Below are positions 1,185 to 42,055 of a stretch of DNA of 64,000 nt, piece by piece. Numbering within the stretch: position 1 is the stretch's first letter; each line of letters begins with the position of its first letter. The stretch spans positions 30,644 to 94,643 of the forward strand of contig SVDZ01000011.1 of assembly GCA_015057625.1 (NCBI GenBank), in the 5' to 3' direction. The notes below the pieces were generated by a model that saw only the letters and a list, made by a program, of their open reading frames with translations, did no database searches and was not told the DNA's origin. Origin of the DNA: Lachnospiraceae bacterium (GTDB lineage: Bacteria > Bacillota > Clostridia > Lachnospirales > Lachnospiraceae). The position numbers and the translations under genes were made by a program.

Positions 1185-1186
1185 CC

Positions 1187-9425: not shown

Positions 9426-9482
9426 TGCAAGATACGCGCTTGTAATACAACGCTGCTTGTTAGGAAGTATCCTAAGACCTCT
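9426..9482 (+). repeat. Conserved structured motif, copy 1 (TGCAAGATACGC - variable hairpin - CTTGTTAGGA-loop-TCCTAAGACCT)
   Basis: Shares its 5' and 3' blocks with copies at 39415-39471 (minus) and 41997-42055 (plus). The central hairpin differs in sequence but keeps its pairing. Confidence 0.6.
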
Positions 9483-9858
9483 TATGTATCGTTGTCATGA
9501 TGACAACACTCTAGGCATTACTACTCTTTACACTACGTAGTAGCGAAATACTAAGAGAATAAAATCGTCAGATTTTGTGCGATGGGTGTATTTTGCTCTC
9601 ATACGCCGAGGGCTTAGTGATGTGTGCCCTATCACTTTAATTATTTTCATATTCTCCTCCATCTGTTTGACTTATAAAACCATATAGACTAGTATTATAT
9701 TATCAACATTAATGGGAGGTGTGTGTTTGAAATTTAGTTATCGTGTGGAAGTATGTGCGGCATAGGCTGTCATATTTCGATAGCCTGTGCATTCTAGCTT
9801 AACAATAACTGTATTATGAATTTATTTCATATCACAGCATATGATAGGAGGCACATAC

Positions 9859-10131
9859 ATGGGCTATATAAACGGAAACAAAATATTGCCTGAGGAATTA
9901 ATCAATCGTATTCAGGATTATATTGAAGGCGAATGTATCTATATACCAAAGAGTAAGAAACATTGTAAAGCATGGGGAGAGGTAAGCAATGCCAGGTTTG
10001 AACTGGATTGTCGAAACCGTGATATCTATGAGAGATATATTTCTGGAACGACCGTAAAGAAATTATCTGAAATATACTGTCTTTCTACTCAGGGTATTTA
10101 CAAGATTATTTCCTCGCAAAAACAAAGGTAG
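9859..10131 (+). CDS. Small HTH protein (CD3324/Mor-like family)
   Basis: YIPKSKKHCKAWGE...RNRDIYERYISGTTVKKLSEIYCLSTQGIYKII, with RBS AGGAGG 8 nt upstream of the ATG at 9859. Confidence 0.6.
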   Translation: MGYINGNKILPEELINRIQDYIEGECIYIPKSKKHCKAWGEVSNARFELDCRNRDIYERYISGTTVKKLSEIYCLSTQGIYKIISSQKQR

Positions 10132-10207
10132 AAATCTATTATTGTCTTAGGGTTCAAACAGCTAAATGTTTGGACCCTGAGCGATAAATGATTTCTACTT
10201 TTTATTT
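10128..10207 (+). terminator. Compound terminator (outer stem GTAGAAATC/GATTTCTAC with inner hairpin) plus T-run
   Basis: Outer stem 10128-10136 pairs with 10190-10198. Inner hairpin is AGGGTTCAAAC/GTTTGGACCCT. TTTTT follows. Confidence 0.6.
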
Positions 10208-10307
10208 TATAATCAATAGTTGCTAGAATTATCTATAGGTACTTGATAAAGTTAGATATGTAAATGCGTTTAACTATAATTACAAAAATGGGAGGTTATA
10301 AAATAAA

Positions 10308-11018
10308 ATGAGATGTGATAGTTATAAAGATTTATTTAGTAAAGAATATTTAATGGGACCAAACAGCATGCGACTGCTTGATGAACTGATTGAAAAATAT
10401 CCAATCGACACAAATCTTAAAATAATGGATTTGGGATGTGGCAAAGGAATTACCAGTTTCTTTCTTTCCAAAGAATTTAACGCCAATGTATATGCCACGG
10501 ACTTGTGGTGCTCTGCAACAGACAATTATGAGCAGTTCAAGCAATGGGGAATTGATAACAATGTCGTTCCTATTCATGCAGATGCACATAATTTACCTTA
10601 TGCAAACAATTATTTTGATTTGATAACAACCATAGATTCATTTCATTATTTTTCAACGGAACCGGGATTTTTTGAATCGAAAATACTGCCCCTTGTAAAA
10701 TCTGGTGGGTATGTATATATTGCAATGCCCGGTCTTAAGGAAGAAATTCACGGTAACAAAGACAATCTGGTTCTTGAATGGCTTGGTGGTGAAGAAAGTG
10801 AATATGAATTATTCCACAGTATCGATTGGTGGAAAAACCACCTGAATAGTTCCGATTTATACGAGATTGTTGATGCCTTCGAACTGACAACGGGTGAAAA
10901 AGCATGGCAGGACTGGTTTGATTCTGAACATGAATATTCCGTTAGTGATAAAGAATACTTTGCAAAAGGACTCAATAAGTATCTCAATGTTATTGGGTTC
11001 ATTATAAAGAAATTCTAG
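10308..11018 (+). CDS. Class I SAM-dependent methyltransferase
   Basis: Motif I IMDLGCGKGITS. Confidence 0.85.
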   Translation: MRCDSYKDLFSKEYLMGPNSMRLLDELIEKYPIDTNLKIMDLGCGKGITSFFLSKEFNANVYATDLWCSATDNYEQFKQWGIDNNVVPIHADAHNLPYANNYFDLITTIDSFHYFSTEPGFFESKILPLVKSGGYVYIAMPGLKEEIHGNKDNLVLEWLGGEESEYELFHSIDWWKNHLNSSDLYEIVDAFELTTGEKAWQDWFDSEHEYSVSDKEYFAKGLNKYLNVIGFIIKKF

Positions 11019-11030
11019 TTATGATATCAT

Positions 11031-11546
11031 TCACTTCATCTTTTGCTGAATCATTTGAAGTACACGAAGCTCTCTTTTAATCATGATTTCGTCAAAAAAG
11101 TTATCACTCTGATATTCATCGTTTGCCTGAATCGCCACCTTAAGATCAACGACTCTTAAGACAAACTCCGCTTCTTTCTCATATTCATCCAATTCCTGAC
11201 TTGCAAGCTGATTCTCCACATCGCAAAAATAGTAATAGTTTTCCTGCTCGAAAATGGTATTCTCACTTTCATCACTCTTTTGTCTTCGAAGCACACTTCC
11301 AAATTCTCGAATGCTTTCCGGAATCACTAACATCCCCACTTCTTCTCTGACTTCACGAATCAGAGCTTCCACCTTATCTTCATCATTATGAATTCCTCCA
11401 CCGGGAAATTTATAGTATTTTTCTTTCTTACTATAAACAAGAGCAATTTTGTCCCCTTGAAGGATAATCGCTCTGGCTGACGGTCTACGAAAAATCTCAT
11501 CCGTTTTCTTATAATCTTTTAAGTCAATTTCAAATAGTCGTTCCAT
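11031..11546 (-). CDS. NUDIX hydrolase
   Basis: Nudix box GGGIHNDEDKVEALIREVREEVG. Confidence 0.85.
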   Translation of the reverse strand: MERLFEIDLKDYKKTDEIFRRPSARAIILQGDKIALVYSKKEKYYKFPGGGIHNDEDKVEALIREVREEVGMLVIPESIREFGSVLRRQKSDESENTIFEQENYYYFCDVENQLASQELDEYEKEAEFVLRVVDLKVAIQANDEYQSDNFFDEIMIKRELRVLQMIQQKMK

Positions 11547-11563
11547 ATTCTATAATCCCTTTT

Positions 11564-12457
11564 CTAAAACAAATCCAGCGAACCGGATAAATAAATTTCT
11601 TCCCGTACTTTTAACTGATGCTCCGGTTTCGTCATATAATAAAGCAGAAATTCCAGAATCATTGCGCTGCCTAGGCTTCGCCCCTCAATTTTAAAATTCC
11701 GAAAACCTGCCGGAGCATACACCTTCTGAATGTCATCAATTCCTATAAATCCCGGATTGTTCATTGCATCAGAAAACCGATAGCCTCTCTGTGCAGTCGG
11801 TGACACACACACATGGTCGTCACAGTCCATGTCCAGATTCTTCCTACTGACATTTTCATAGCAATCCTTTCGGGCATAGCAGTCAAACCAACAACACTCA
11901 TTGCAGAGAAATTCTACCTTTTCCTTTTGCACTTCTGTTAGTCTGTCAAGTTGTTCCCGTTCCTTGTTGAGTCGAAAATCCGGAACCACATATCGAAATT
12001 CATCCCGGTTCAATTCCCTTTCAAACTCTCGAAAATCTGTCAGCACCTTCGTCGTAGAGGAAACAAAGTAAAACTCCGGATAATTCTTTTGAAGATACTC
12101 CAACAGTAAATCCGAATGGATGATAATTCCGTTGTTTCCACCATTTTCAAACAGTTCGCAAAGTCGATTACAAAACCGGTCGCAAAGATGCTTCTCTTCC
12201 AAAAGAGAATTACTGAAGGTCAGTCGTGCTGATATGTCATATGTATTTATTAATTCCAATACCTTCTCCGGTGATTCTTCTCCAAAGCCTACGCGTCCGC
12301 CACCCCACAAGCATTCCTGTGGAGCTCCATAGATTGATCCGATTTCACACCACTCGTAAAAATATTCCCTGTGTTCCCGAAACAGAGACAGGAACATCCG
12401 ATATAACTCATAGAATTCAAACAATCCCGGAAGATGGTAATAAATCTTCTTCTCCAT
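11564..12457 (-). CDS. Conserved hypothetical protein with a Cys-rich segment
   Basis: Start placed at MEKKIYYHLPGLFEF (12457). Cys cluster FLCNECCWFDCYARKDC...CDDHVC. No family assigned. Confidence 0.55.
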   Translation of the reverse strand: MEKKIYYHLPGLFEFYELYRMFLSLFREHREYFYEWCEIGSIYGAPQECLWGGGRVGFGEESPEKVLELINTYDISARLTFSNSLLEEKHLCDRFCNRLCELFENGGNNGIIIHSDLLLEYLQKNYPEFYFVSSTTKVLTDFREFERELNRDEFRYVVPDFRLNKEREQLDRLTEVQKEKVEFLCNECCWFDCYARKDCYENVSRKNLDMDCDDHVCVSPTAQRGYRFSDAMNNPGFIGIDDIQKVYAPAGFRNFKIEGRSLGSAMILEFLLYYMTKPEHQLKVREEIYLSGSLDLF

Positions 12458-12613
12458 GATTTCTTCATCTCCATACCTAATATAAACTTTATTTAGTATA
12501 TCATATCGAGCAATGATTTGCGAAGAACAGACTCCCTTTTCTTGAGCCACGATTTCATTTTTGATATAATAAATACAATATTATGTTCTGAAAATTTCAT
12601 AGGAGGTATGATT

Positions 12614-13504
12614 ATGAAGAAAAAACTTTATTGCATTTCTACCCTATTACTTAGTTGCTCTTTTCTTCTATCCTTCTCTGGATGCTCCAAGGGAAAAAAA
12701 GCAACAGAGATGAAACGGGAGAAGCAGGAAATTATAGAGGAAATGGTTGTGGATTATGGAACCTACGGTAAAGACGCCGATGAGAAGGTGGACGCATTGT
12801 TGAAAGAACTTCGGACCACAGATTCAGATTGTGGGAAACGCTGGGACAGTATTATGAAGCTATGGGGCACCACAAATAGCGATTTGTCTCTAAATTATGA
12901 TGTTCTTCCGGACAATCTTTCTGACACGGATTCTCTCTGTCTGGTAGCTTTGGGCTTCCAGTTAAATCCTGACGGTTCCATGAAAGATGAACTGATTGAA
13001 CGGTTAAAAGTTTTAAAGAACAGTGCCGAAAAATATCCTAATGCACTGATTGTTTGTACCGGCGGTGGCACTGCAGAAGATGATAAAACCGCAACAGAAG
13101 CCGGAAAGATGGCGGAATGGCTGATTCAACAAGGCATTGATGAAAAAAGGATTATTATAGAGGATAAATCCGTCACCACAGCCCAAAATGCTATCTATAC
13201 CTTTGATATTCTTGAAAAACAATATCCGCAGGTAAAAGAGTTGGCAATTATTTCAAGCGATTACCACATTGCAACCGGAACCCTTCTATTCGAGGCAGAA
13301 TCACTTCTTAGAGCCGCTAGCATGGATGCCACGAGAACAGAAGTTGTATCCAATGCAGCTTGGAAAGCACCATCCGGAACTCTTTCAACAATGTTCCAAG
13401 CCGGTGCCTTAATCGAACTCTCCGGAGATGTAGATACAGCATTTGAAATCTATTACGACACTTATGACATTCACAAACTTCCGGATATTCATGAAGGAAA
13501 ATAA
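12614..13504 (+). CDS. YdcF/DUF218-family lipoprotein
   Basis: Lipobox LSFSGC after MKKKLYCISTLLLSC, and DUF218 core LIVCTGGG...AEWLIQQGIDEKRIIIEDKSVTTAQNA. RBS AGGAGG lies upstream of the ATG at 12614. Confidence 0.8.
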   Translation: MKKKLYCISTLLLSCSFLLSFSGCSKGKKATEMKREKQEIIEEMVVDYGTYGKDADEKVDALLKELRTTDSDCGKRWDSIMKLWGTTNSDLSLNYDVLPDNLSDTDSLCLVALGFQLNPDGSMKDELIERLKVLKNSAEKYPNALIVCTGGGTAEDDKTATEAGKMAEWLIQQGIDEKRIIIEDKSVTTAQNAIYTFDILEKQYPQVKELAIISSDYHIATGTLLFEAESLLRAASMDATRTEVVSNAAWKAPSGTLSTMFQAGALIELSGDVDTAFEIYYDTYDIHKLPDIHEGK

Positions 13505-13552
13505 AGAATATTTTGGTTTAAGATAGCTATGCAAGCACGCCTCAGCGTTCTT

Positions 13553-14371
13553 CTACTCACCAACTGTACACAGTTTTCCTCTTAACACATATCCTATTTT
13601 TTCATAACATGCATTGGATGCAACATAATCTGCATTTGTATATAACATAGGCACATAACCTTCATCTTGGGCTTTTTTTGTTATATTATACACAAGATTT
13701 TCTGCATAATGTTTTCTTCTGGCATCTTCACGTGTATATACTAATTCTATAGAAGCCAACTCTCCATTGCCATTAGGTCGGTATGTACAACTGGCAACAT
13801 GCTCACCTTTACCATCTTCCCAAAAGAATATATTATTGTTATTAACTGAATATTCTGCATTGGCACGATTCTGCTCATAACTTTGATGGCCGATACCTGT
13901 TTCCCTTTGGAATAAATCATATATTTCCGTTATTTCCTCTATATCATCCACAGTGCACTGATGCACCTTTCCCTCAACATTTCCCTCCGGTTCAAGCAAA
14001 TTTAGACAGTCATATGCAAACATATTAATCTTTATAGTAAGCTTTTTTTCCTCTTCATCTGCTCTTTTAATAAAATACTCCGCCAGCTCATATTTAATAT
14101 TGAAAGTATAACCTTTATCAAATGGAAATATATCATTTGTCAACTGATATACCTCCTCCATCTCCGCCTCTGTGGCATTATCCGGAGTCCAAATCCAAAC
14201 CGGAAAAGGGTTATTTGAATGACAAATAATCATCCTCTCATGATCAGTTAGAAGGATTCTGCAATCACCACCCATAATTCTTCCTAATACAAAAAATGTG
14301 TATTTATCATCTTCAAGTAATCTATAGTCCCTTTCGTCCACATAATTATCCATACTTCTTGCATCTTTCAT
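13553..14371 (-). CDS. GNAT family acetyltransferase
   Basis: C-terminal RRKHYAENLVYNITKKAQDEGYVPMLYT...NACYEKIGY acetyl-CoA-binding pattern. Confidence 0.7.
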   Translation of the reverse strand: MKDARSMDNYVDERDYRLLEDDKYTFFVLGRIMGGDCRILLTDHERMIICHSNNPFPVWIWTPDNATEAEMEEVYQLTNDIFPFDKGYTFNIKYELAEYFIKRADEEEKKLTIKINMFAYDCLNLLEPEGNVEGKVHQCTVDDIEEITEIYDLFQRETGIGHQSYEQNRANAEYSVNNNNIFFWEDGKGEHVASCTYRPNGNGELASIELVYTREDARRKHYAENLVYNITKKAQDEGYVPMLYTNADYVASNACYEKIGYVLRGKLCTVGE

Positions 14372-14420
14372 CTATTCTACACTTTCCTTCTTTTTGGTGC
14401 ATTTTTTGCCATGTCTGTTT

Positions 14421-15074
14421 TCACGCTGACACAATATCCATCAATTCAATTATATCTTCCACAACATAATCAGCTCCTGCTTTCTCCAAATCCTCTTTTG
14501 ATGAGTTACCATAAGTTACGCCACAAGTGCAGACGCCGGCACTCCTTCCCATCTCAATATCCACCGGCATATCCCCAACAACCAGTGACTCTTCAGAAGA
14601 AAACGAAAGTTCTTTCAGTGTTTTCAAAACCTGTTGGGGATTTGGCTTCAATAGGGTTGAATTATCATTACCCAGAATATATTTGAAATACTCCTTAAAT
14701 TTCCATTGTGTCAAAAATTCATTAACTGATTCTGTGTCTCTTGATGTAGCAATGGTACATTGAATACCTCTTTTCGTAAGTTCTTCCAACACCGTATCTA
14801 CATTTGTAAAAAATGTTGGAGATATGGTCTTCTTCATTTCTTCAAATAACTGTCTGTAAATTGTCTCACACTCCACTAGCGTCTCTTCCGATAATTCCGG
14901 ATATAATTTGTGAAAACCCACTTTCGAAGAAAAGCCTATGGTGGACGCAAATTCCTCATCACTTGCCACTGCGTATCCCATTCTCCGCATGGTTTCTTTT
15001 TTTGCTGTTAAGATTACTTTCCTTGTGTCTGCAATCGTTCCGTCAAAATCAAAAATAACTAAATTATATTTCAT
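14421..15074 (-). CDS. HAD-family hydrolase (phosphoglycolate phosphatase-like)
   Basis: Motif I VIFDFDGT, motif II ATSR, motif IV VGDMPVD. Start placed at MKYNLVIF. Confidence 0.85.
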   Translation of the reverse strand: MKYNLVIFDFDGTIADTRKVILTAKKETMRRMGYAVASDEEFASTIGFSSKVGFHKLYPELSEETLVECETIYRQLFEEMKKTISPTFFTNVDTVLEELTKRGIQCTIATSRDTESVNEFLTQWKFKEYFKYILGNDNSTLLKPNPQQVLKTLKELSFSSEESLVVGDMPVDIEMGRSAGVCTCGVTYGNSSKEDLEKAGADYVVEDIIELMDIVSA

Positions 15075-15091
15075 ATCTTTCCTCATTACCA

Positions 15092-16189
15092 TTACTCGTT
15101 AAACACAATTAACGGAATCAGCATTTCCTCTTCCGTTATACTACCATGCATTGACACCCATCTCTCATCATTGAAATAGATTGTCAAATCGCTCGTGGCA
15201 ATAGCTAGATAGTCCCCTAACATTCCTCTAAACTGTTCATGAAGTTTTCCTGTTCCGAACAGATTTTTTTCTATTACTTCTTCCACGGGCATCAGTAAAA
15301 ACTTCTCCCCAAATATTCTGTTGAACTCCTCTTTAAAGAATTCTTTTTTTTCCTCTTTTACAAAGAAATTGAGAACTCGTGGTTCAAGTGATGGCTTTCT
15401 TATAAGGCAATCACAAAGCTGTGGATAATCCTGTAGCACAACCATGTCATTGTCAATGTGCCCATGATCTGCTGTAACAACTATAAGTGTGTCACTTAGT
15501 TCTTCTGCCATTTCTTTAATCATCTCTTCCATCTCAAGCATACATTTGTGCACTTCATCAGATTTCAATCCATGTCTGTGAAGCGCCCCATCCGGATTAT
15601 TCCAGTATGCATAGATATATTTCTGATCATGTTCTTTGCACCACTCTTTAATCTGTGTACATATTTCTTCTAGACTCTGCGGATGTGGCTCTAGGAATGG
15701 TGCCGTCATATATGCTTTGCCTCCAAATCGATTAATCCTATCCACAATATTTTCATAAGGTGTCACTGTCCATGGTACATTGAAATCTGCTGCAGGTTCG
15801 TCCGTATCCTGCACCACGTTCATAAACACTGTGACATTCTTATCAACTATTGGATAATAGCAGTCCCACCCAAGCCAACTATGCTCACATGGCTGAAGCC
15901 CCGACATAACGGATGTTGTGGCTGCAACAGTTGTAGAAAGAAATACTGAACTATATATTCCTGCCAGATGACTTCTAAACGGTCCATTTTCTTTTAAATG
16001 ATTTTCAAGAACAACTTTTCCCATACCATCCAACAATATAACAACTATGTTTTTGTAATCCTTCTCCAAATATTTATCCAAAAGTGGCAATGTTGCTCCC
16101 ACTGGATCCGCATTAAACTTCTTTAAAATTGAATTTGGCAAATTCGCTATACAATTGTTGTAATCAGGCCATACTACTTTCTTTTCCAT
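15092..16189 (-). CDS. Alkaline phosphatase superfamily / type I phosphodiesterase-nucleotide pyrophosphatase
   Basis: VVILLDGMG and VTADHGH metal-site motifs. Start placed at MEKKVVWPDY with RBS GGGAGG. Confidence 0.8.
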   Translation of the reverse strand: MEKKVVWPDYNNCIANLPNSILKKFNADPVGATLPLLDKYLEKDYKNIVVILLDGMGKVVLENHLKENGPFRSHLAGIYSSVFLSTTVAATTSVMSGLQPCEHSWLGWDCYYPIVDKNVTVFMNVVQDTDEPAADFNVPWTVTPYENIVDRINRFGGKAYMTAPFLEPHPQSLEEICTQIKEWCKEHDQKYIYAYWNNPDGALHRHGLKSDEVHKCMLEMEEMIKEMAEELSDTLIVVTADHGHIDNDMVVLQDYPQLCDCLIRKPSLEPRVLNFFVKEEKKEFFKEEFNRIFGEKFLLMPVEEVIEKNLFGTGKLHEQFRGMLGDYLAIATSDLTIYFNDERWVSMHGSITEEEMLIPLIVFNE

Positions 16190-16201
16190 AAAAACCTCCC
16201 T

Positions 16202-16237
16202 AAAAAAGAAAACGCCTATCTGTGTAGATAAGCGTTT
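16202..16237 (-). terminator. Rho-independent terminator of the small ORF
   Basis: Minus strand reads ACGCTTATCT-ACAC-AGATAGGCGT followed by TTTCTTTTTT. Confidence 0.6.
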
Positions 16238-16281
16238 GTCAAAAATAAAATATAATATAAAATACAAGTTTACTCTTATCT

Positions 16282-16380
16282 TCACTTCAAATATCTATAT
16301 ACACCATCAAGACCATACACTCTTATAATGTGCATGATCGAAATAATGACATATAAATAAATGAATGAAAATGTATTCAT
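16282..16380 (-). CDS. Stand-alone 32-aa hydrophobic peptide (MNTFSFIYLYVIISIMHIIRVYGLDGVYRYLK); type I toxin-like or small membrane protein
   Basis: RBS AAGGAGAG lies 6 nt before the ATG. It has its own consensus promoter and its own terminator. It is absent from the ORF track because it is under 60 aa. Confidence 0.5.
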   Translation of the reverse strand: MNTFSFIYLYVIISIMHIIRVYGLDGVYRYLK

Positions 16381-16412
16381 AGTAAACTCTCCTTTCGTTA
16401 AAAATTAGAGTC

Positions 16413-16441
16413 ATTGTATCTCTATTGTTAATTATTGTCAA
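16413..16441 (-). promoter_or_regulatory. Sigma-A-type promoter for the small ORF
   Basis: Minus strand reads TTGACA - 17 nt - TACAAT, about 30 nt upstream of the small-ORF RBS. Confidence 0.55.
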
Positions 16442-16465
16442 TAACAAAATTATTTTTCAAAACAA

Positions 16466-17266
16466 TCAGTCAGAAAACACCTCAAAACTATCCCTTCTGG
16501 CACGGGCTATCAGTACAATTTTATTTTCATTTGCGTACTGTACTGCTCTGTCAGTTGGTACAGCTTTTGCCACCAGCACAGGAATACCTGCCTCGCTTAC
16601 TTTTGTAATCATATCAAGGGGAACTCTTCCTGATGTATATATAATGCAGGACTCAGGATTGATACGATTAATAAGAATATAGCCTATCGCTTTGTCTATT
16701 GCATTATGTCTGCTTATGTCTTCACATTCAAAAACAATCTCCCCATCTTTTAATAAAAAGCAACTGTGAGCAGACTTTGTCTTGTTATGTATCTCACTTC
16801 CTTTGGAAAATTCCTCTATAAGTTTCCAGATATCTCCTATTCTATATTCTTTGAATTCTGTTCGTCTGCTATAATTTTCGTTCTTTTCATTTATTTTGGC
16901 ACTCCGGTCAATCTCAATGTCCTCTACCATTACTGTCACTTCATCATTCTGAACAATACTTAAATCAACAATATCATCCAAACCTCTTATAACTTTTTTG
17001 GAGAATAATCTTCCAACCACCAATTCTTTTATATTTGTTTTTGTACAGACAATGTTATACTTTTCTATTTGTTCAATTTGTTCTTTTTTTTCTGTATCTT
17101 CAATTACTGCTTTTCTATCTTTTTTTCTTATAACCTTCACAGCAATCTCTTTCTCTACAAGTATTTGCTGTTTTGCGCTAATCTCACTGCCATCAGCCTT
17201 ATACATTTTTGTATTTACTGTAATAATATTTTCCATATGTTCTCTCCGATATTTCTCTCTATCCAT
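16466..17266 (-). CDS. fdhD: Formate dehydrogenase accessory sulfurtransferase FdhD
   Basis: SAHSCFL, ISRHNAIDKAIGY, SGRVPLDMITKVSEAGIPVLVAKAVPT. Confidence 0.85.
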   Translation of the reverse strand: MDREKYRREHMENIITVNTKMYKADGSEISAKQQILVEKEIAVKVIRKKDRKAVIEDTEKKEQIEQIEKYNIVCTKTNIKELVVGRLFSKKVIRGLDDIVDLSIVQNDEVTVMVEDIEIDRSAKINEKNENYSRRTEFKEYRIGDIWKLIEEFSKGSEIHNKTKSAHSCFLLKDGEIVFECEDISRHNAIDKAIGYILINRINPESCIIYTSGRVPLDMITKVSEAGIPVLVAKAVPTDRAVQYANENKIVLIARARRDSFEVFSD

Positions 17267-18170: not shown

Positions 18171-18171
18171 A

Positions 18172-30536: not shown

Positions 30537-31283
30537 TCATTTTTCGATCATATTTTCCAAAACCTTTATGAATTCTCTCCAATCCTCAATATAAAGATGT
30601 TCGCAATCCACTTTAAGACCGTCATTTATTTTTTTCATTGGATCGTTCTCTTCGTCTGTCTCTCCATTGTAAAGAACCGGGAATATTCCGGCGTTGTGAG
30701 CTCCGACAACGTCTGCCGCAATGCTGTCACCGCAATACCACACCTCGTCCGGTGTAAGCCCGGCTTTTTTTAATGCTACATCAAACATCATTCTATTAGG
30801 CTTAGTGAAAACATATTCACTTGAGGTAAGCACGAATTCAAATTTATTATTCGGTAAAAACCTGTTTAATCTCTCCTTTAAAGCTTCACCTGAAAAGCAC
30901 AAATTACTTATTACTCCGGTACGTATCCCCTGTTGATCCATAAATTCTAACATTTCATCCACATAGGGCATTTTGGCACCCTTTGAAATACCATACCAGA
31001 TAATTTGCTCAGCCTCCGGAATCGAAACAGACAATTCTATTCCAAGATAATCCATAACCATCTGCAAAAAGCAGTGCTCATGAACTTCAATATTGGGACC
31101 TCTCTCTGCTTTTACTTCAGCCAACAGCGCCATAACTGTTCTGTTAAATTCATCGAATGTAACATTATAAGGATTACTCTTAACGTAATTCCAAATTGCT
31201 CTGTTACCATTGTCTGTATCATGGTTAGGCTCATACAAAAGTGTATGACCGTAATCAAATATTATCATCTTAGGTTTAATCAT
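30537..31283 (-). CDS. HAD-family hydrolase
   Basis: IIFDYGHTL (degenerate motif I), VISN, CGDSIAADV. Confidence 0.75.
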   Translation of the reverse strand: MIKPKMIIFDYGHTLLYEPNHDTDNGNRAIWNYVKSNPYNVTFDEFNRTVMALLAEVKAERGPNIEVHEHCFLQMVMDYLGIELSVSIPEAEQIIWYGISKGAKMPYVDEMLEFMDQQGIRTGVISNLCFSGEALKERLNRFLPNNKFEFVLTSSEYVFTKPNRMMFDVALKKAGLTPDEVWYCGDSIAADVVGAHNAGIFPVLYNGETDEENDPMKKINDGLKVDCEHLYIEDWREFIKVLENMIEK

Positions 31284-33040: not shown

Positions 33041-33060
33041 ACATTTCCTCCTTTTCGTTA

Positions 33061-33828: not shown

Positions 33829-33886
33829 CTCTCATCCTCCCAGCATCTTAGATTAATGTTGCTAATTCCTCTTTCAAAACTAGCAT

Positions 33887-34627: not shown

Positions 34628-34682
34628 TTTCCCCTCACTATTTACAAACCATCTCCACCAAAATCAATGGTACTTACATCTC

Positions 34683-35708
34683 TTAATCTTGTAATCCCAA
34701 CAGTTCATTCACATATCTCACTGCCTGATCAAATCTGCTATTATAATCACCTGTTATAATCTTGTAATCAAAATTATGCTTTTCATACAAGGCTTTTATC
34801 ATTTCGCTGTATTTTTTTCTGTCAGCTGCAATGACCTCACTTCGATCACCGTCTTGCACCCACTCTACATCAGGCTCTAGAAACAAAATCAAATCGTATG
34901 TGTTTAGTGCAGAAATCGCCTCCGCAAGAAGAGCATTATTTTCTATATTTTCATCTTCTAAAAATCCCATATAAAAGCGTGTCACCAAACAATCTGTATC
35001 TTCAAACAACACTTTGTTGGCTTGCTCAATCAATCGATATTCTTTCGCCTTGTGTTCCAACAAAATCCTAGTGAAGTCATCAGAGAGCATATACACATCT
35101 GTCCCTGAAAGTTCAGATAATTCTCTCCCTACTTCTTCAAGATATACCGTATTATAGTAGTTTGCAAGATTTATTGTAAGTGTTGATTTGCCAACACTCT
35201 CACCACCTATAAGCAGCACCTTTTTGGTAAAATATGATCTTACAATCTGTGGCATTTCATCCCATCGTCCATACAAATCATTTCTTATGTCAGTTGAGTT
35301 GAAGTGATTTCTTTTAAATACTATAAATTCAGATTCTTCATAGCACTTATTCCAAAAGCTGCTTTCATCGTAGTCATCTCCGCAAAAAACCGCATCTATC
35401 TTTTTTCCTATTGCATCTTTGACTATCTCACAGTCTTTCTTCCAATATTCTTCTGTATATTGTTCTTTTGAATCAAGCTCATCTTTTAATGGAATAATAT
35501 GCACATTTCCCAGATGCTTTGTCAGTTGATATACCCATCTAATTTTCACTTTAAGAGGAATATCAGAGGCATTTTCTCTATATGAAATAATTACATATAA
35601 CTCATCACACAATCCTGCCGCCTTAATGATGCATTCTAAATGTCCAAGGTGTAGCGGATTGAAACAGCCTCCATACATACCAACATTATATTTCTTTCCC
35701 TTTGGCAT
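34683..35708 (-). CDS. nadR: NadR-type NMN adenylyltransferase / ribosylnicotinamide kinase (no HTH domain)
   Basis: GGCFNPLHLGHL (HxGH nucleotidyltransferase) plus P-loop GGESVGKST. RBS AGGAGG precedes the ATG at 35708. Adjacent to pnuC. Confidence 0.75.
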   Translation of the reverse strand: MPKGKKYNVGMYGGCFNPLHLGHLECIIKAAGLCDELYVIISYRENASDIPLKVKIRWVYQLTKHLGNVHIIPLKDELDSKEQYTEEYWKKDCEIVKDAIGKKIDAVFCGDDYDESSFWNKCYEESEFIVFKRNHFNSTDIRNDLYGRWDEMPQIVRSYFTKKVLLIGGESVGKSTLTINLANYYNTVYLEEVGRELSELSGTDVYMLSDDFTRILLEHKAKEYRLIEQANKVLFEDTDCLVTRFYMGFLEDENIENNALLAEAISALNTYDLILFLEPDVEWVQDGDRSEVIAADRKKYSEMIKALYEKHNFDYKIITGDYNSRFDQAVRYVNELLGLQD

Positions 35709-36408
35709 TGTTTTCCTCCTGTTCTTTTGTTCCTTTATACCACTGAACAAACATAATTATCGCATTAGCGAGAAATACTGTCCACATAAGAAGAACTGCC
35801 ACACTTGCTCCGTCTGTAAACAATGCATATACCCACATAATAACTGAAACAACATCTACAAAAATCCATATAACCCATTGTTCCATAAATCTCTTAATCA
35901 TAAGTACCTGGGCAATTACTGAAAATACCGTGCTCATGCTGTCGACTATAGGAAGATTTCCTCCTAACAACTTAAGAACGTATGCATAACCAAATACACC
36001 AAGCGCACTTATCACCGCAAGCAAGATATCCTGCTGCCATGTCATTCTTCTCTTATACACGACATTTGTCTCTTTATCTACATTTTTTGCCCACAAAACC
36101 CATCCGAGAATATTTGTTGGGAAATAATACAAAAGGTTCAGCATAACGTCACCGTAATATTTTGCCTTCCAGGCTATTATAGCATACAAAATAACATTGA
36201 TTGTTCCAAAAAAATAATTTGAAACTTTTCCCATGCCGCACAATATTACGCAAATAACACCGGTTATAGCTGCTGCAATTCCAATAACTGAATCTTTCTG
36301 ATAAACAGATACTCCTAAAATCACAATATTAGCAAACAGCATCCAGATGATCTGCCACTTTTTCCACCCGGTTAATTCTCTTTTGATATTTTCCTTTAAC
36401 TCATTCAT
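35686..36408 (-). CDS. pnuC: Nicotinamide riboside transporter PnuC
   Basis: 240 aa, 7-8 transmembrane segments, W-rich PnuC pattern (WQIIWM, WVIWIFVD), nadR neighbour. Confidence 0.8.
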   Translation of the reverse strand: MNELKENIKRELTGWKKWQIIWMLFANIVILGVSVYQKDSVIGIAAAITGVICVILCGMGKVSNYFFGTINVILYAIIAWKAKYYGDVMLNLLYYFPTNILGWVLWAKNVDKETNVVYKRRMTWQQDILLAVISALGVFGYAYVLKLLGGNLPIVDSMSTVFSVIAQVLMIKRFMEQWVIWIFVDVVSVIMWVYALFTDGASVAVLLMWTVFLANAIIMFVQWYKGTKEQEENNAKGKEI

Positions 36409-36520
36409 TTAATATCCCTTCCTTCCTATAAATTATAGTATAAGACTACGTTAAGTAAAACTACTATTCAAGCATTTTTTTATTGAAGCTTCATGTTGAT
36501 ATTCTACAACATTAAAGACT

Positions 36521-36590
36521 AAAAATGGTCGCCGGATTGGCGACATTGTTAATAAAAAATGCACCCAAAATGTATTTACATTTCAGATGC
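36521..36590 (-). terminator. Two tandem terminators downstream of the lipoprotein gene
   Basis: GCATCTGAAATGTA/TACATTTTGGGTGC plus T-run, then GTCGCC-AATCC-GGCGAC plus TTTTT (read on the minus strand). Confidence 0.6.
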
Positions 36591-36609
36591 ATTAATCATT
36601 CATTTAGTA

Positions 36610-37077
36610 TTAATAACCTAATTCTTTAATTACGTCTTTAACTGAATCTTTGTAAGTCTCTTCCACATGAATATAAAGTAATGTAGTATCAACTCTGCAA
36701 AGGTACATATATGAACCATCACTTGTCAATGAATAAGTCGCGTAATTTCCTAAGCTGACTGATGACTCAGCTGAAACATTTCCTTTGCTTGCCTCAAATG
36801 TATTTTTGTTAGTGGTAAACATTCCTTCTGTATTTGCCTCATTATCAATACTGTAGAACTCAATCTGATATCCATCCGGATGTTGTGCAATTGTAGCTTC
36901 TTTAACATGATCAAATTCAGCATACTGACTGGTTGCATCAGTTGTAGTAAAGCCGAGGCTCTCGGTTTTTGATATAAACTCACTTGTTGTGATTGCCTTC
37001 TTTTTGCCACAACCTGTTAACGCCAAAACAATAATAATACATAACGCTCCGATAATACTAATTTTTTTCATTTTCAT
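36610..37077 (-). CDS. Lipoprotein of unknown function
   Basis: Signal peptide with lipobox LALTGC. Confidence 0.7.
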   Translation of the reverse strand: MKMKKISIIGALCIIIVLALTGCGKKKAITTSEFISKTESLGFTTTDATSQYAEFDHVKEATIAQHPDGYQIEFYSIDNEANTEGMFTTNKNTFEASKGNVSAESSVSLGNYATYSLTSDGSYMYLCRVDTTLLYIHVEETYKDSVKDVIKELGY

Positions 37078-37093
37078 TTTCTCCTCCTTAAAT

Positions 37094-38506
37094 TTAGATT
37101 GATTCCAATCTTATAGTGTTTGTGTTGCCTGATTTACCTCCGGCAGAACCACCTGTGAGTACTACATTATCGCCCTTTTCAAGACCAAATACATTCTTGG
37201 CATGCTGAAGCGCATGATAGAACATTACGTCCACTGAATTGAACTCCTCACTCAGTACAGGTGTTACTCCCCAACTCAGATTAAGCTTTCTCCACGCCTT
37301 CTCAGATGTAGTCATTCCTATAATGTCAACAGGTGGTCTGAAACGGCTTACCATTCGCACTGTAATACCAGACAACGAACTAATGACAATTCCCTTTGCC
37401 CCTGTGTCAATTGCCATGGCACAAGTCGCATGGGAAACGGCATCTATATTGCTCTTAATCACATAATCTGTGTTGGAAAATCTCTTTGTATAATCAATCT
37501 TTGTCTCTGTGTACTCTGCTATCTCTGCCATATTCTTAACTGCAGCAACAGGATACTTTCCTGATGCAGACTCACCGGATAACATGATAGCTGAAGATCC
37601 ATCGTAAACCGCGTTGGCGACGTCAGAAATCTCTGCTCTGGTTGGACGTGGATTTTGAATCATTGACTCTAACATTTCTGTTGCTGTGATAACTCGCTTT
37701 CCAAGAAGTCTACATTTCTTAATTAAGAACTTCTGAATAGATGGCACCTCAACAAATGGGATTTCAACGCCAAGGTCACCTCTGGCTACCATGATTCCGT
37801 CAGCGATATCACATATTTCTTCTATATTTTCAACTCCTGCGCGGTTCTCAATCTTTGCTATAACATCAATGTCATTTCCACCATTGCTATTTAAAAATTC
37901 TCTTACTGAATTGATATCGCTCTTGGTAGATACAAATGACGCCGCTATGTAATCAACATCATTTTGAATTCCGAAAAGAATATCATCTTTGTCCTGTTCG
38001 CTGAGATAATCACCTTTCAATATGTGATTTGGGAAGTTCATACTCTTTCTGTCTGACAATTCACCCCCAGCGATAACCTTGCATATAGCTTCTGTTTTCT
38101 TAAGTTCCACAACCTCAAAAATCAACAATCCGTTATTAACAAGAATTCTCTCACCTACTTTTATTTCATTAATGAGGTTCTTGTAATTGACAGACACTCT
38201 CTGCTCATTTCCTTCCACATCATCAACTGTAAATATGAACTGGTCGCCTTCTTTTAATACTATTTTGTGATTTTCAAAAGTCTTGATTCTGTATTCCGGT
38301 CCCTTTGTATCAAGCATGATAGCTATTGGCAAATTTAATTTTTCTCTGACTTTTTTAATCAAATCTATCTTTGTCTGATGTTCCTCATGGGTTCCATGGG
38401 AAAAATTCAGTCTTGCAACATTCATTCCAGCCATACACATCTTTGTAAGTATTTCTTCATTTTCACTTGCCGGTCCAATGGTACAAATAATCTTTGTCTT
38501 CCTCAT
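37094..38506 (-). CDS. pyk: Pyruvate kinase
   Basis: MRKTKIICTIGPAS, NVARLNFSHG, MVARGDLGVEIP. Confidence 0.95.
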   Translation of the reverse strand: MRKTKIICTIGPASENEEILTKMCMAGMNVARLNFSHGTHEEHQTKIDLIKKVREKLNLPIAIMLDTKGPEYRIKTFENHKIVLKEGDQFIFTVDDVEGNEQRVSVNYKNLINEIKVGERILVNNGLLIFEVVELKKTEAICKVIAGGELSDRKSMNFPNHILKGDYLSEQDKDDILFGIQNDVDYIAASFVSTKSDINSVREFLNSNGGNDIDVIAKIENRAGVENIEEICDIADGIMVARGDLGVEIPFVEVPSIQKFLIKKCRLLGKRVITATEMLESMIQNPRPTRAEISDVANAVYDGSSAIMLSGESASGKYPVAAVKNMAEIAEYTETKIDYTKRFSNTDYVIKSNIDAVSHATCAMAIDTGAKGIVISSLSGITVRMVSRFRPPVDIIGMTTSEKAWRKLNLSWGVTPVLSEEFNSVDVMFYHALQHAKNVFGLEKGDNVVLTGGSAGGKSGNTNTIRLESI

Positions 38507-38689
38507 ATTTTTCCTTTCCTTTATGCTTTAAGAATTATTATCTTAGTTTCCTCTCAATTTTACATCCATTCCGTATTATAACACTTGATTTTTATAAAAC
38601 AAACACTAATTATAAATATTGGTGAAAATAACTATAAATAATTATATATTGTCATTATGCAAAAAAACAAAAAATAACTAAAAAAACTG

Positions 38690-38718
38690 TTTACAAATCC
38701 ACTTTGATATAGTAGAAT
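38690..38718 (+). promoter_or_regulatory. Putative promoter of tRNA-Gly
   Basis: TTTACA - 17 nt - TAGAAT, about 30 nt upstream of the tRNA 5' end. Confidence 0.45.
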
Positions 38719-38746
38719 AATTCTTGCGTGTGAAACACGTAACAAT

Positions 38747-38818
<72 letters not shown>

Positions 38819-38825
38819 TAGTAAA

Positions 38826-38860
38826 AAACAAGGTCATCCAAATGGATGGCCTTGTTTTTT
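38826..38860 (+). terminator. Terminator after tRNA-Gly
   Basis: AACAAGGTCATCCA / TGGATGGCCTTGTT stem followed by TTTTTT. Confidence 0.75.
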
Positions 38861-39081
38861 ATTGAGCCCAATCCTGGGCTCAAAGGTTCGCTCTCTCGCC
38901 TGCCGGCTCGGTCGTTGCTTCTGCTTCGCATCTATAAGTGCACGGCTTATCATATTCTTCTATTAGTTTTGAGTTGTTATAAACTTAATTTATTTAGGTT
39001 CGAGGAACTTGTGGAACTGAGTTCCAGAAGTTAATTTTTTGCAAAAAAAAGCTACCGACATTTGCCAGCAACTTGTACTTT

Positions 39082-39384
39082 TCATATTTTGTTATATATC
39101 AACCAGTCTTCCACCGAACAACCATTTATTGCACAAACAATTATTTCATTCCATCTTTCTTTAATTGATTTACCATCATAGATTGGTGCTTCAAGCATTT
39201 CCTTAGCTGTTTTAAATTCGCAACCATCTTTTATATCACAAAGTCCAACCCAATAAGGTTTTTCATACTCCGGTAAAAACCCTATATAATGTTCTGTTTC
39301 TTTTGGATCAGATTTGAAATAAAAAACTGTTTCATCACAGTTTTCTGCTTTTTCAAAAATACTTAATAATTCTTCGTATTTCAT
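39082..39384 (-). CDS. Hypothetical 100-aa protein (small acidic, immunity-protein-like)
   Basis: ORF with RBS GGAGAG, immediately preceded by motif copy 2. No recognisable catalytic motif. Confidence 0.55.
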   Translation of the reverse strand: MKYEELLSIFEKAENCDETVFYFKSDPKETEHYIGFLPEYEKPYWVGLCDIKDGCEFKTAKEMLEAPIYDGKSIKERWNEIIVCAINGCSVEDWLIYNKI

Positions 39385-39414
39385 TTTTCTCTCCGTCTTT
39401 TTAATTTAGGAATA

Positions 39415-39471
39415 AGGTTTTAGGATTATCCTAACAAGAATGCATTTGTGGCCACAGATGCGTATCTTGCA
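39415..39471 (-). repeat. Conserved structured motif, copy 2 (minus orientation)
   Basis: Reverse complement reads TGCAAGATACGC ATCTGTGGCCACAAATGCA TT CTTGTTAGGATAATCCTAAAACCT. Confidence 0.6.
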
Positions 39472-39659
39472 ATACAGTACACACAGTTCAATGATACTAC
39501 CTCCTATGATTACTTTCAGACTGGACATCAAATTATTATTATCACTCTATTCTGAAATGAATAAAATCATTTCCTCATATGCATATTACATAATCACCAT
39601 ATCCCGTCTTAAATATACCATCTTGAAGACATACTGCAACGACACGTTTGAGAAGAAAG

Positions 39660-39980
39660 TTATAGCTCCGTATACTTATCAGCCTTTCCTTTAGCTTTTT
39701 CCACTGGGTACTTCTTCTCATTCTGTTCCATTTTCATATTAACTATTTCATCTGCATCCAATTCAAGTTTATCCAATAAATTTTGACTATATACAATAAC
39801 ATCTGCCAATTCCTCTTTGATATGTTGGATATCATATTTTTCTTCTGACCACTGGAAACATTCTAATAATTCAGCTGCTTCAATCACTATTGATTTGGCC
39901 AAGTTAGCAGGTGAATGGAATTGATCCCATTCTCTATCTTCTGTAAATTTTCTAATTCTATCTATTGTTTCTCGTTTCAT
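39660..39980 (-). CDS. MazG-like all-alpha nucleoside triphosphate pyrophosphohydrolase
   Basis: REWDQFHSP.NLAKSIVIEAAELLECFQW and EELADVIVY metal-binding motifs. The start lies 3 nt after the helicase stop. Confidence 0.8.
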   Translation of the reverse strand: MKRETIDRIRKFTEDREWDQFHSPANLAKSIVIEAAELLECFQWSEEKYDIQHIKEELADVIVYSQNLLDKLELDADEIVNMKMEQNEKKYPVEKAKGKADKYTEL

Positions 39981-39983
39981 TTT

Positions 39984-41780
39984 TTATCTCTCCAATGTTA
40001 CATCATTCGCAATTGCAATATATTTTTTTAAATATTCTCTAAGCCTACGATTGCAGGCATATACATAACACCCTTTAATACCTCTTGCTAGAATGGTGGT
40101 ATATGTATTCAATATTAATTCTTTAAGAACTTTTTCATCTGTTCCAGCTTTAACCTTTTTATCTTTGTACTTTGATAAGTCAATTACAATGGAATCACTC
40201 TCCTCATCATAGTCTATCTCTTCACCAAAAATAACTCCAACATAGTTCATATCGTACCCCTGTGTAGTATGAATACAACCAATAGTACAATGCGAGTCTT
40301 TTCTAGTTATCCATGATTCATTAGTAAGATTCCAAATATACTTATGCTTTTCAATTAAAATGTCATATTCTCCGTCCTTAACCAACATATCATAACATTC
40401 CATATTGTCTTTAGGTTTCTTAGCTTGCTTTGTTTTCCAATCCCATGAAAAACCTGCAACAGTTTTAGACAAACCGACTTCATCATCTTTTTTTCTTACC
40501 GTATTAACCAACTTATCTACGTCGTCAAAAATCAAAAAATCATAATTTTCAATTTTTTCTCTTTTCTTTCGACTGCAAGTCATAATATCTTTGACATACT
40601 GAATATAAGTATCTCCACCCTCACAACGCATCTGTGTTTCGAGCTTGTGCTCTTTTATATTTGTTCCATACTTTTCTAAAGTATTATTAAACTCAATATT
40701 TGTAATATCTGATGATTTGACACTTTGATTTTTATCATAAAACAAAACAACATGTTTCGCAGATTTTAATACCCACTCTAACTGATTACTATTTTCTGGT
40801 TCAAGACCTAATGCTCTACATGTTTTATCAAAAGAACTGTACCCAGTTAGATTTTTTCTTTTTGATAATCTGTGTGATTCATCCACGAACAAAATATCAT
40901 AGTCATCCTTTATCACATCATTAGGACCAATAACCATTTCCCTAACAAGACCATTTCCGCATTCTTTAAACACATTGGAAACTGTATTTCTTATTCCTGG
41001 CATCGGAAATACAAATCCTATTTTAAATGGTTTGCCATTGCGCTCGGTTACAATATATTCCTTTAATCTTTTTAGTGCAAAACGCTTATTATCTTCAATA
41101 TCATCTTCTAATTCGTCTTGTATATCCAAAATATCATCTTCAACATTCATTGCATTCACCAACGAATTTATTAAACTGATTGCCAGTACGGTCTTACCGG
41201 TTCCTGCACAACCATCCACCAAACTTACACAACTACTTTTAGTATTTTCGAATGTATCCAAAATATCATTAAGCACTTCTATGCTCACTTTGTTCTGTTC
41301 ACCAGTCAAAGCATTATAAGGAGAAAACTTAAAAATATTATCATTTTCTATTATATCAATAGATTTTTTTGCAAGTCCCTTATCTCTTAAATCTTTCCAT
41401 AGCGTCCTGAAATCACTTCTGTATTTTTTTCTTTGATAATAATCGTGAGAGGCTTGTTGTCCTTTATTTCGATTAATTATATTTTTAAACCTTTTATCAA
41501 CTGAACAATATTTTATAAGTCTCTGTTCATAATCTAAAACTACAGACTTATTAAACTCACCATTAAAAACAATCTCTACAACTTTTAAATTTCTTTTTTC
41601 TTCGTTACTTAAGTGTTGCTTCATTCTTCGAGCTGCACTTGTAGTTTCGCCTACATATAAACTTTCATCATCATGTATTAGATATACAACCGGCCAGTCA
41701 TTTCCTTTTTCGGACATTTCGACAGTTTTTATCCCCTCTTCATTAAATGGATATGAGCGAATCTCATTCAATATTGCCAT
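39984..41780 (-). CDS. GIY-YIG-like nuclease domain fused to a DUF2075/SF1 (Schlafen-type) P-loop helicase
   Basis: VVYLIHDDESLYVGETTSAARRMKQHL (GIY-YIG), DGCAGTGKTVLA (Walker A), ILFVDESHRL (Walker B), IHTTQGYDMNYVGVIF (SF1 C-terminal motif). Confidence 0.8.
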   Translation of the reverse strand: MAILNEIRSYPFNEEGIKTVEMSEKGNDWPVVYLIHDDESLYVGETTSAARRMKQHLSNEEKRNLKVVEIVFNGEFNKSVVLDYEQRLIKYCSVDKRFKNIINRNKGQQASHDYYQRKKYRSDFRTLWKDLRDKGLAKKSIDIIENDNIFKFSPYNALTGEQNKVSIEVLNDILDTFENTKSSCVSLVDGCAGTGKTVLAISLINSLVNAMNVEDDILDIQDELEDDIEDNKRFALKRLKEYIVTERNGKPFKIGFVFPMPGIRNTVSNVFKECGNGLVREMVIGPNDVIKDDYDILFVDESHRLSKRKNLTGYSSFDKTCRALGLEPENSNQLEWVLKSAKHVVLFYDKNQSVKSSDITNIEFNNTLEKYGTNIKEHKLETQMRCEGGDTYIQYVKDIMTCSRKKREKIENYDFLIFDDVDKLVNTVRKKDDEVGLSKTVAGFSWDWKTKQAKKPKDNMECYDMLVKDGEYDILIEKHKYIWNLTNESWITRKDSHCTIGCIHTTQGYDMNYVGVIFGEEIDYDEESDSIVIDLSKYKDKKVKAGTDEKVLKELILNTYTTILARGIKGCYVYACNRRLREYLKKYIAIANDVTLER

Positions 41781-41996
41781 ACCTTAAACCTCTCTTACCG
41801 CACAAAAATATAATATAATTATATTAATAATCACTAACTCTTTCAAGCATACTACAGCGTATCTCAAGCATTTTTCTGCAAAAATCATATATTATCATAA
41901 CAGTTTAAAACTGCTTTCGATTTACTTAAACCAAAAAGATTTTTTTAACCCTTTTGCGCATGCTTTTTCTTTCTAAAATTTGTGTTTAGTGTCTAC

Positions 41997-42055
41997 TGCA
42001 AGATACGCCTTTGTATATACAATGCAAACTTGTTAGGAAGTATCCTAAGACCTCT
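41997..42055 (+). repeat. Conserved structured motif, copy 3
   Basis: TGCAAGATACGC CTTTGTATATACAATGCAAA CTTGTTAGGAAGTATCCTAAGACCTCT. Confidence 0.6.

Follow-up and report, generated by a model that had tools for sequence, protein, structure and literature searches.

What kind of element is a hairpin-bearing motif of about 57 nt that stands three times beside phage-defence genes in a bacterial genome? The question is raised by a 64,000-nt stretch of DNA from Lachnospiraceae bacterium (GenBank assembly GCA_015057625.1, contig SVDZ01000011.1, forward-strand positions 30,644 to 94,643), hereafter the window, in which a first-pass annotation had described the motif and proposed that it was a cis-regulatory leader RNA, a small RNA, or a recombination or boundary site for cassette exchange. 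Here we present evidence that the motif is very probably an oriT (origin of transfer) belonging to the pC221/MOBP7 type, and that the three window copies are orphan oriTs. As single-stranded DNA (ssDNA), such a site would form a branched hairpin bound by a ribbon-helix-helix protein of the MobC/NikA type together with a PF03432 (MobA/VirD2-like, MOBP) relaxase. The relaxase would cut at GTATCTTG|C, attach to the 5' end and lead the strand into a recipient via the mating pore of a conjugative element.

Three copies of a branched hairpin

The copies lie at 9426-9482 (+), 39415-39471 (-) and 41997-42055 (+), exactly as first annotated, copy 2 being inverted relative to copies 1 and 3. Throughout, the annotated orientation is the one to which these signs refer. 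The window contains the 5' block TGCAAGATACGC exactly three times, and the 3' block CTTGTTAGGA-N2-5-TCCTAARACCT is also found three times, against an expectation of 0 from 100 shuffles. Scored with a covariance model built from the relatives described below, the three copies reach 53-56 bits (53.1, 54.3 and 55.7 for copies 1, 2 and 3; E about 1e-11). Because the next-best match in the 64 kb attains only 11 bits, the window holds exactly three copies, with no fourth. Folded as ssDNA, all three adopt the same branched hairpin (z = -2.5 to -3.0), in which a helix, P1, encloses a variable hairpin, P2, with a further hairpin, P3, alongside. In copy 1, given in the annotated orientation, P1 pairs 9427-9431 with 9456-9459, P2 occupies 9436-9453 and P3 9460-9475, and the tail GACCTCT follows at 9476-9482.

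The motif has hundreds of relatives, both in Lachnospiraceae of gut and rumen and on plasmids of Clostridium, Cohnella, Enterococcus and Acinetobacter. Using the motif blocks as patterns, we scanned viral-collection contigs, genome loci and metagenome loci. The core CTTGTTAGG-loop-CCTAAKACC was present on 61 viral-collection contigs. The window's 5' block joined to this core was found at no fewer than 117 genome loci, nearly all from gut or rumen Lachnospiraceae, and the exact window variant, TTAGGA/TCCTAA.ACCT, at no fewer than 120 metagenome loci. A blastn search of the phage collection with the motif gave no match, and looking for the sequence string in the literature yielded only unrelated primers.

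The alignment of relatives contains invariant blocks (GCAAGATACGC or GCAAGC; CTTGTTAGG; CCTAA.ACC), between which the helices vary yet keep pairing, with loops of 3 to 16 nt. Across 73 distinct relatives, 89.6% of the helix cells are paired. Changes on both sides of a pair were counted in 78 cells, compared with 18.4 +/- 3.4 in shuffled alignments, and none of 500 shuffles reached the observed number; when the partner column was shifted by one, pairing fell to about 50%. The compensatory variation of the hairpin, originally noticed among three sequences, is thus real and general. It is present in P2, P3 and the closing helix P1, where an E. faecium plasmid and a contig found via its relaxase alone carry GCTAG...CTAG in place of GCAAG...CTTG. 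The mismatches also reveal which strand folds. In the annotated orientation, P2 of the relatives contains 44 A.C mismatches and 12 G.T pairs, and since an A.C mismatch on this strand is a G.T wobble on the other, the complement of the annotated strand is the one that folds.

Association with mobC-relaxase operons

On the viral-collection contigs, the first gene past the motif was repeatedly one for a NikA-like/MobC protein of 105-115 aa, followed by a PF03432 (MobA/VirD2-like) relaxase gene. Profiles for MobC and the relaxase were built from the fetched loci, and genome copies were counted only if at least 1.5 kb was available on both sides. Among the matches listed, 57 of 78 such well-flanked genome copies stand upstream of a mobC/relaxase operon at no more than 1.5 kb from it, and 19 of 31 metagenome copies of the exact window variant are situated 74-513 nt upstream of mobC or the relaxase gene; overall, some 60-70% of the relatives listed stand directly upstream of an operon encoding a NikA-like MobC and a MOBP relaxase. 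The annotated orientation is opposite to that of mobC in 54 of the 57 genome cases and the same in all 20 viral-set cases (GCAAGC subfamily). On independently annotated plasmids, the motif was found 75-105 nt upstream of mobC and the relaxase gene in Acinetobacter pYH16056-5, in C. botulinum pCDC3875 (typed MOBP) and in a Cohnella plasmid, and about 650 nt upstream of them in E. faecium pEF7150-3. A position upstream of mobC-relaxase operons is the classical place of an oriT, and the motif therefore occupies that place. Tyrosine integrases, large serine recombinases, excisionases, DUF3991-TOPRIM and RadC-like proteins are the other recurrent neighbours of the relatives, a set of genes typical of ICEs (integrative and conjugative elements) and of IMEs (integrative and mobilizable elements).

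On pEF7150-3, an optrA/fexA plasmid, about eight iteron-like repeats (AGTGATAGCAGAAAGTGC...) adjoin the oriT variant (locus L303, 5040-5290); they may be binding sites for an accessory protein.

Likeness to the oriT of pC221 and to other MOBP nick regions

The classic mobilizable S. aureus plasmid pC221, a MOBP-typed replicon with genes for MobC and a relaxase, displays the same architecture 90 nt upstream of mobC, at GGGTATGGGATATAATCCCAT-CAAG-[GTATATTC...GAATATAC]-AACGCTTGCCAAA. The best match of the window-family covariance model in pC221 falls exactly at that site (14.9 bits, E 0.006). With the oriT of pC221/pC223 (MobC + MobA; MOBP7) the window family shares the partners, mobC and a PF03432 MOBP relaxase, and the location upstream of mobC. 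It also shares the order on the mobC-sense strand, namely a hairpin, CAAG, an inverted repeat and 8 nt that end in CTTG and precede a C, as well as a tail ACCC on the far side of the distal hairpin. In pC221 the inverted repeat is followed by AACGCTTG|C, CTTGC being common to that plasmid and the window motif. The two differ in the stem, which is ATGGGAT in pC221 and TTAGGR in the window motif, and pC221 has a longer variable repeat and lacks the ATAC block that separates P1 from P2 in the window motif. The overall similarity is low, at these 14.9 bits, and the window copies are without adjoining mob genes. Membership in the family is evident from sequence and architecture alike, and the copies are representatives of a known kind of element, in essence the kind of outcome that the first-pass annotation had itself named as telling against its proposal.

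On the complementary strand, the layout consists of the distal hairpin P3 (TTAGGR...YCCTAA, with conserved flanks), CAAG, the variable P2 and 8 nt ending in GTATCTTG|C. P2 followed by GTATCTTG|C is present in all three window copies, and the invariant block on this strand is GCGTATCTTGC. The MOBP nick consensus is (C/T)ATCCTG(C/T), and in the oriTs of RP4 and H. pylori tfs4 an inverted repeat lies directly 5' of the core (PMC3772185). TATCTTGC, the complement of the invariant block, agrees with this consensus at 7 of 8 positions. Compared with the nick regions of RP4, R64 and tfs4, the window motif has TATCTTG|C for (C/T)ATCCTG|(C/T), again with the inverted repeat directly 5', and its relatives likewise have NikA-like/TraJ-like accessory proteins; it differs by one substitution in the hexanucleotide core and by the addition of P1, in which the nick core pairs with CAAG, and of a second conserved hairpin, P3. 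A spacing of 8 bp from inverted repeat to nick is characteristic of RP4 and R64. P2, the repeat that varies and covaries, is probably the specificity element.

By analogy with these systems, copy 1 would be nicked on the complementary strand between 9428 and 9427, within GTATCTTG|C, with the AbiE operon described below on the leading side. The predicted nick of copy 2 is on the + strand between 39469 and 39470, again in GTATCTTG|C, and that of copy 3 on the complementary strand between 41999 and 41998; the former would face the MazG/helicase cassette and the latter the helicase/MazG cassette from its other end.

Several observations weigh against the identification or parts of it. The predicted nick relies on the analogy with the MOBP consensus and on the nick of pC221, which we take to be GCTTG|CCAAA; an alternative nick site could lie 3' of P3 on the annotated strand. 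Across all subfamilies the best-conserved block is P3 with its flanks and not the CTTGC core. Among four loci sampled via the relaxase alone (from an 8-sequence alignment), one had a strong motif and two had weak, identical matches. Orphans make up about 30-40% of family members among the matches listed, including 30 of 80 well-flanked copies listed for the window subfamily. The MobC and relaxase profiles matched none of the ORFs in the 64-kb window, and the relatives with the best scores exceed the window copies by 5-10 bits.

Orphan copies beside defence operons

All three window copies are orphans, because the window is without a MobC or relaxase gene. A Pfam scan of 50 window ORFs found no integrase, transposase or conjugation gene, and ordinary chromosomal genes lie between the islands. 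Copy 1 is flanked on one side by an AbiEi/AbiEii pair (abortive-infection/toxin-antitoxin) transcribed away from it, with AbiEi at 8706-9368 (-; PADLOC 5e-67, promoter-like site at 9368-9340) and AbiEii at 7873-8709 (-; PADLOC 6.5e-93), both also recognized by Pfam. Downstream of the copy, at 9841-10131 (+), is a gene for a small DNA-binding protein of the CD3324 family (Mor-like; Pfam Mor, NCBIfam CD3324_fam 1.2e-30). The island with copies 2 and 3 begins just past a tRNA-Gly(GCC) gene found with Rfam at 38747-38818 (+). A 100-aa ORF of unknown function (39082-39384, -) begins 31 nt past copy 2 and shares its orientation; it has an orthologue of about 80% DNA identity at locus L111 and no Pfam, PADLOC or NCBIfam match. 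Between copies 2 and 3 lie Pfam-assigned genes for a MazG-like pyrophosphatase (39660-39980, -) and for a GIY-YIG + Schlafen-group-3/DUF2075-type helicase (39984-41780, -), a cassette with weak PADLOC PDC-S14 matches. About 130 nt downstream of copy 3 is a gene for a WapI-like immunity protein (42186-42596, +; Pfam PF24716, 1.2e-10). The flanking genes agree with the annotation, which was also right that an ORF follows each copy in the same orientation, at about 360-380, 31 and about 130 nt for copies 1, 2 and 3, respectively.

The AbiE and helicase/MazG operons fill the position that the mobC-relaxase operon has in complete elements, at similar distances. On the probable nicked strand, copy 1 would face AbiEi-AbiEii, and copies 2 and 3 would both face the helicase/MazG cassette, one from each side. 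The earlier description of the motif as facing outward from the defence modules is reversed once the probable nicked strand is used, the predicted nicks then pointing toward the defence operons.

Comparable settings recur in related genomes, for which PADLOC was applied to the neighbours of selected examples only. Orphans of the window sub-variant adjoin type I restriction-modification operons (L091, L100), AbiE pairs (L162, L073) and related helicase + MazG genes (L111, L168). At L176 an integrase, an excisionase and restriction-modification cargo accompany an inverted motif pair only 45 nt apart, with no mob genes, and L068 is similar, with a serine recombinase. At L111 the MazG/helicase cassette with both motif copies is 98% identical to window 39646-42077, the similarity ending 22 nt past copy 3; across copy 2 and the 100-aa ORF identity is no more than 80%, and the outer flanks bear no relation to those of the window. 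Units of orphan and cassette like this one are found again, 98% identical, in other genomes where the flanks differ, so that they move as units. On L162, a rumen metagenome-assembled genome (MAG) contig, AbiEi, copy 1 and a further 111 nt are 97.8% identical to the window, and the same MAG carries a motif copy linked to mobC and a relaxase gene on another contig, L103; a mob operon of this type is a possible helper for orphan copies. At this same tRNA-Gly locus, Eubacterium uniforme has an inverted motif pair that encloses another gene, for a secreted protein of 301 aa.

The gene content beside and between the copies thus varies in related genomes (L111, L162, E. uniforme, L246). Because related genomes carry differing cargo beside or between the copies, the motif marks the borders of units exchanged between genomes. 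In ICESa2603-family elements, the DNA beside oriT is a variable cargo hotspot (PMC4735348). The border pattern fits relaxase-mediated recombination as well as an oriT-side cargo hotspot, neither mechanism being proven. Of the three original proposals, the boundary site for cassette exchange was therefore closest in spirit, in that the motif is a DNA site with varying cargo; the identity of that site is an oriT.

Further observations concern individual loci. The AbiEii region of the window (7887-8631) cannot be aligned to L162, and the next gene is again about 79% identical, a pattern suggestive of replacement of the toxin gene in an AbiE locus conserved apart from it. L246, a 13-kb metagenome contig with the motif at one end, contains genes of window 378-11018 and 42601-42970 in a different order (an ABC transporter/HK/LytTR block, the CD3324 gene with a methyltransferase gene, and the ORF to the right of copy 3); this arrangement indicates rearrangement between motif-bearing loci. 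The metagenome contigs L194, with units of about 2.2 kb, and L256, with units of about 1.4-1.6 kb, look like concatemers of tiny plasmids with only a Rep gene and one motif copy, and are candidate "oriT-only" mobilizable miniplasmids. The pair of genes for a helicase (DUF2075/Schlafen group 3) and a MazG-like protein recurs beside the motif as a two-gene cassette, also at L168 (611-2858), where it gives weak Nhi/AbiO-like PADLOC matches; the GIY-YIG fusion was noted for the window copy. It may be an undescribed defence pair.

Active handles or relics of oriT

Orphan oriTs have precedents. The pWBG749-family oriT mimics on S. aureus plasmids are functional, and relaxase-mediated recombination between copies has been demonstrated (PMC4652767; for the family see also PMC4993578). 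Like the window motif, the pWBG749-family oriT and its mimics combine a branched hairpin (IR1-3) with an adjoining conserved core, and one variable repeat, IR2, is read by a ribbon-helix-helix accessory protein as the specificity determinant. Orphan copies occur there on relaxase-free replicons, often several on each, and the relaxase drives recombination between them. The core, CTTATGCTCTT, and the relaxase clade are unlike those of the window motif; furthermore, those orphans are on plasmids and their function in trans is proven, whereas the window orphans are chromosomal, beside defence cassettes, with a putative function in trans.

A second precedent comes from a 2025 survey of Faecalibacterium, in which gut IMEs and Tn1549-type ICEs have PF03432 relaxases that fall into the MOBP7 clade together with those of pC221/pC223, mobC lies upstream of the relaxase gene, and a putative oriT lies upstream of mobC (PMC12084326). 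Relaxase-free integrated elements were found to carry sequences like this putative oriT, and the ICEs and IMEs of gut Firmicutes to carry many defence systems as cargo (PMC12084326). These oriT-only elements, MOBP7 IMEs and Tn1549-type ICEs agree with the window family in the MobC + MOBP7 relaxase setting and the abundant defence cargo, and their oriT is likely to be identical with the window motif. They differ in that the window islands are without an integrase.

If the window orphans are still usable, they would be used in trans by the relaxosome of an ICE or IME elsewhere in the cell, so that the adjacent defence operon would be transferred first, or the copies would be recombined with each other. 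We put the chance of such continued use at somewhat below one half. Only slightly less credible is the alternative that the copies are dead relics, derived from the oriTs of decayed or recombined ICEs and IMEs, whose defence neighbours merely reflect the cargo that tends to lie beside an oriT. The absence of mob genes, an integrase and an att repeat from the window is what decay would leave behind, as are scores somewhat below those of the best relatives, and both the variable hotspot on the oriT side in the ICESa2603 family (PMC4735348) and the wealth of defence systems in gut Firmicutes ICEs and IMEs (PMC12084326) would account for the neighbours. Against decay stand the invariant positions and the three helices, all intact in three diverged copies, the recurrence of orphan-plus-cassette units at 98% identity amid different flanks, and the functional orphan oriTs of S. 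aureus (PMC4652767). Between relics and active orphans we leave the odds near even.

A bolder extension of the active-orphan reading seems unlikely to us: the orphan oriTs would be working parts of a relaxase-driven shuffling and mobilizing of defence cassettes, which a resident MOBP7 relaxosome acting in trans would export and recombine. Its basis is that the predicted nicks face defence operons (AbiE, helicase/MazG and, in relatives, type I restriction-modification), which hold the place of mobC-relaxase in complete elements and would thus enter a recipient first, that inward-nicked inverted pairs bracket differing cassettes, and that one such pair is nearly empty (45 nt).

Other explanations of the motif

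Of the readings in which the motif is not an oriT at all, the one that survives best, though very improbable, is a single-strand origin or primosome assembly site (sso/ssi), which would prime the complementary strand on transferred or rolling-circle DNA and not be a nick site. Strand-specific hairpins in ssDNA, the motif's presence on small plasmid contigs of rolling-circle type with only a Rep gene, and a hairpin-rich conserved module after copy 1 would all suit such a function. The motif nevertheless tracks mobC-relaxase operons and not Rep genes, across phyla and including Acinetobacter; its nick core is MOBP-like and stands the canonical 8 nt away from an inverted repeat, and its equivalent on pC221 is again upstream of mobC.

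A structured RNA, whether a cis-regulatory leader to the small ORFs that follow the copies or a small RNA, as first proposed, is at least as hard to sustain, and we give it marginally less credence still. Its attraction is plain: a conserved three-helix fold with covariation, located in every window copy upstream of a small ORF in the same orientation, with a start codon only 31 nt from copy 2. However, Rfam at the gathering threshold found only tRNA-Gly in the whole window, and at E<=10 found no match in 9380-9560, around copy 1. The orientation relative to the conserved neighbour operon flips between subfamilies, the downstream genes are mutually unrelated, and the wobble asymmetry points to the opposite strand. 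Predicted promoters of the flanking genes lie between motif and gene, or downstream of the motif, and thus outside it. The motif is also found on Rep-only miniplasmids and Acinetobacter mob plasmids. The compensatory variation once taken as a sign of RNA is better read as reflecting hairpins in transferred ssDNA.

Least likely of all, to the point of being negligible, is the end of a miniature inverted-repeat transposable element (MITE) or insertion sequence (IS), for example an IS200/IS605-type hairpin, or an integron attC-like site: a hairpin repeat at the borders of variable cassettes recalls these, and one E. uniforme copy has an IS200-like TnpA fragment some 220 nt away, but that fragment occurs at a single locus only, the copies resemble each other over no more than about 60 nt and show no terminal inverted repeats, target duplications or flanking direct repeats, the window has no transposase or integron integrase, and for attC the 6-bp stem beside GTTAGGA is far too short and lacks a matching inverse core. 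The fragment itself, at L119 4752-4952 past the (+) motif copy, is a 66-aa ORF that by eye resembles the C-terminal part of an IS200/IS605-family Y1 transposase and is apparently a truncated remnant.

Three further candidates were rejected. A sigma-70 promoter within the motif, sought by eye, would have the wrong spacing between TTGTTA and any -10-like hexamer, and the loop ranges from 3 to 16 nt; an extended -10-like TGATAT lies just after the motif in many relatives, not in the window copies. A binding site for the CD3324/Mor-like protein was dismissed in that such proteins accompany only a few orphan copies, with just 7 ORFs spread over 6 loci (the window plus 5 relatives), and their distance from the motif varies. 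Integration at the tRNA-Gly gene was discarded in that the 3' end of the tRNA is not repeated in the window.

Implications

The kind of oriT described here and the existence of orphan copies are both already documented, in the pWBG749 mimics and the Faecalibacterium oriT-only elements. What is new, to a mild degree, is an arrangement that recurs in chromosomes of Lachnospiraceae, with a defence operon in the place of the mob operon on the predicted nick side and inverted motif pairs around exchangeable cassettes. A candidate new RNA motif gives way to a concrete identity, that of an oriT family widespread among gut and rumen Firmicutes, which can be recognized by a short pattern or a covariance model and used to annotate oriTs in Lachnospiraceae ICEs, IMEs and plasmids, where they are seldom annotated. 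The family also flags chromosomal islands free of mobility genes that a helper element could move, here with anti-phage cargo (AbiE and helicase/MazG; in relatives, type I restriction-modification), and the variable hairpin P2 is the likely specificity code tying an orphan to its helper. Should the orphans be active, the way in which defence cassettes spread among gut bacteria and recombine would be easier to understand; if the shuffling of cassettes proposed above were true, the motif would serve anti-phage genes of Lachnospiraceae chromosomes as a portable "handle".

Other repeats near the motif

Directly after copy 1, window 9483-9605 holds a conserved hairpin-rich module of about 120 nt, including GTTGTCATGATGACAAC, CATTACTACT...AGTAGTAGCG and AAAATCGTCAGATTTTG. 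The module accompanies the motif at four other loci with 87-98% identity (L091 4397-4520, L119 4530-4650, L162 4061-4180 and L246 170-290), the five sequences being too alike for covariation testing. Its possible functions are those of an operator, of a single-strand origin or of accessory sites for the relaxosome.

A second repeat, of about 80 nt and promoter/operator-like, with palindromes of the TGACATCATGTCA type, lies at window 42089-42170 and again at L246 325-406 and 1749-1827 and at L091 4552-4630. The small genes that it precedes are unlike one another, being the WapI-like gene in the window and, in L246, a GNAT gene and an ORF of 121 aa, which suggests a shared regulatory cassette head. 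Finally, window 44258-44884 consists of tandem 63-nt units, in 7 to 10 copies of 72-96% identity, within or overlapping ORF 44323-44769 (-), which would therefore encode 21-aa repeats.

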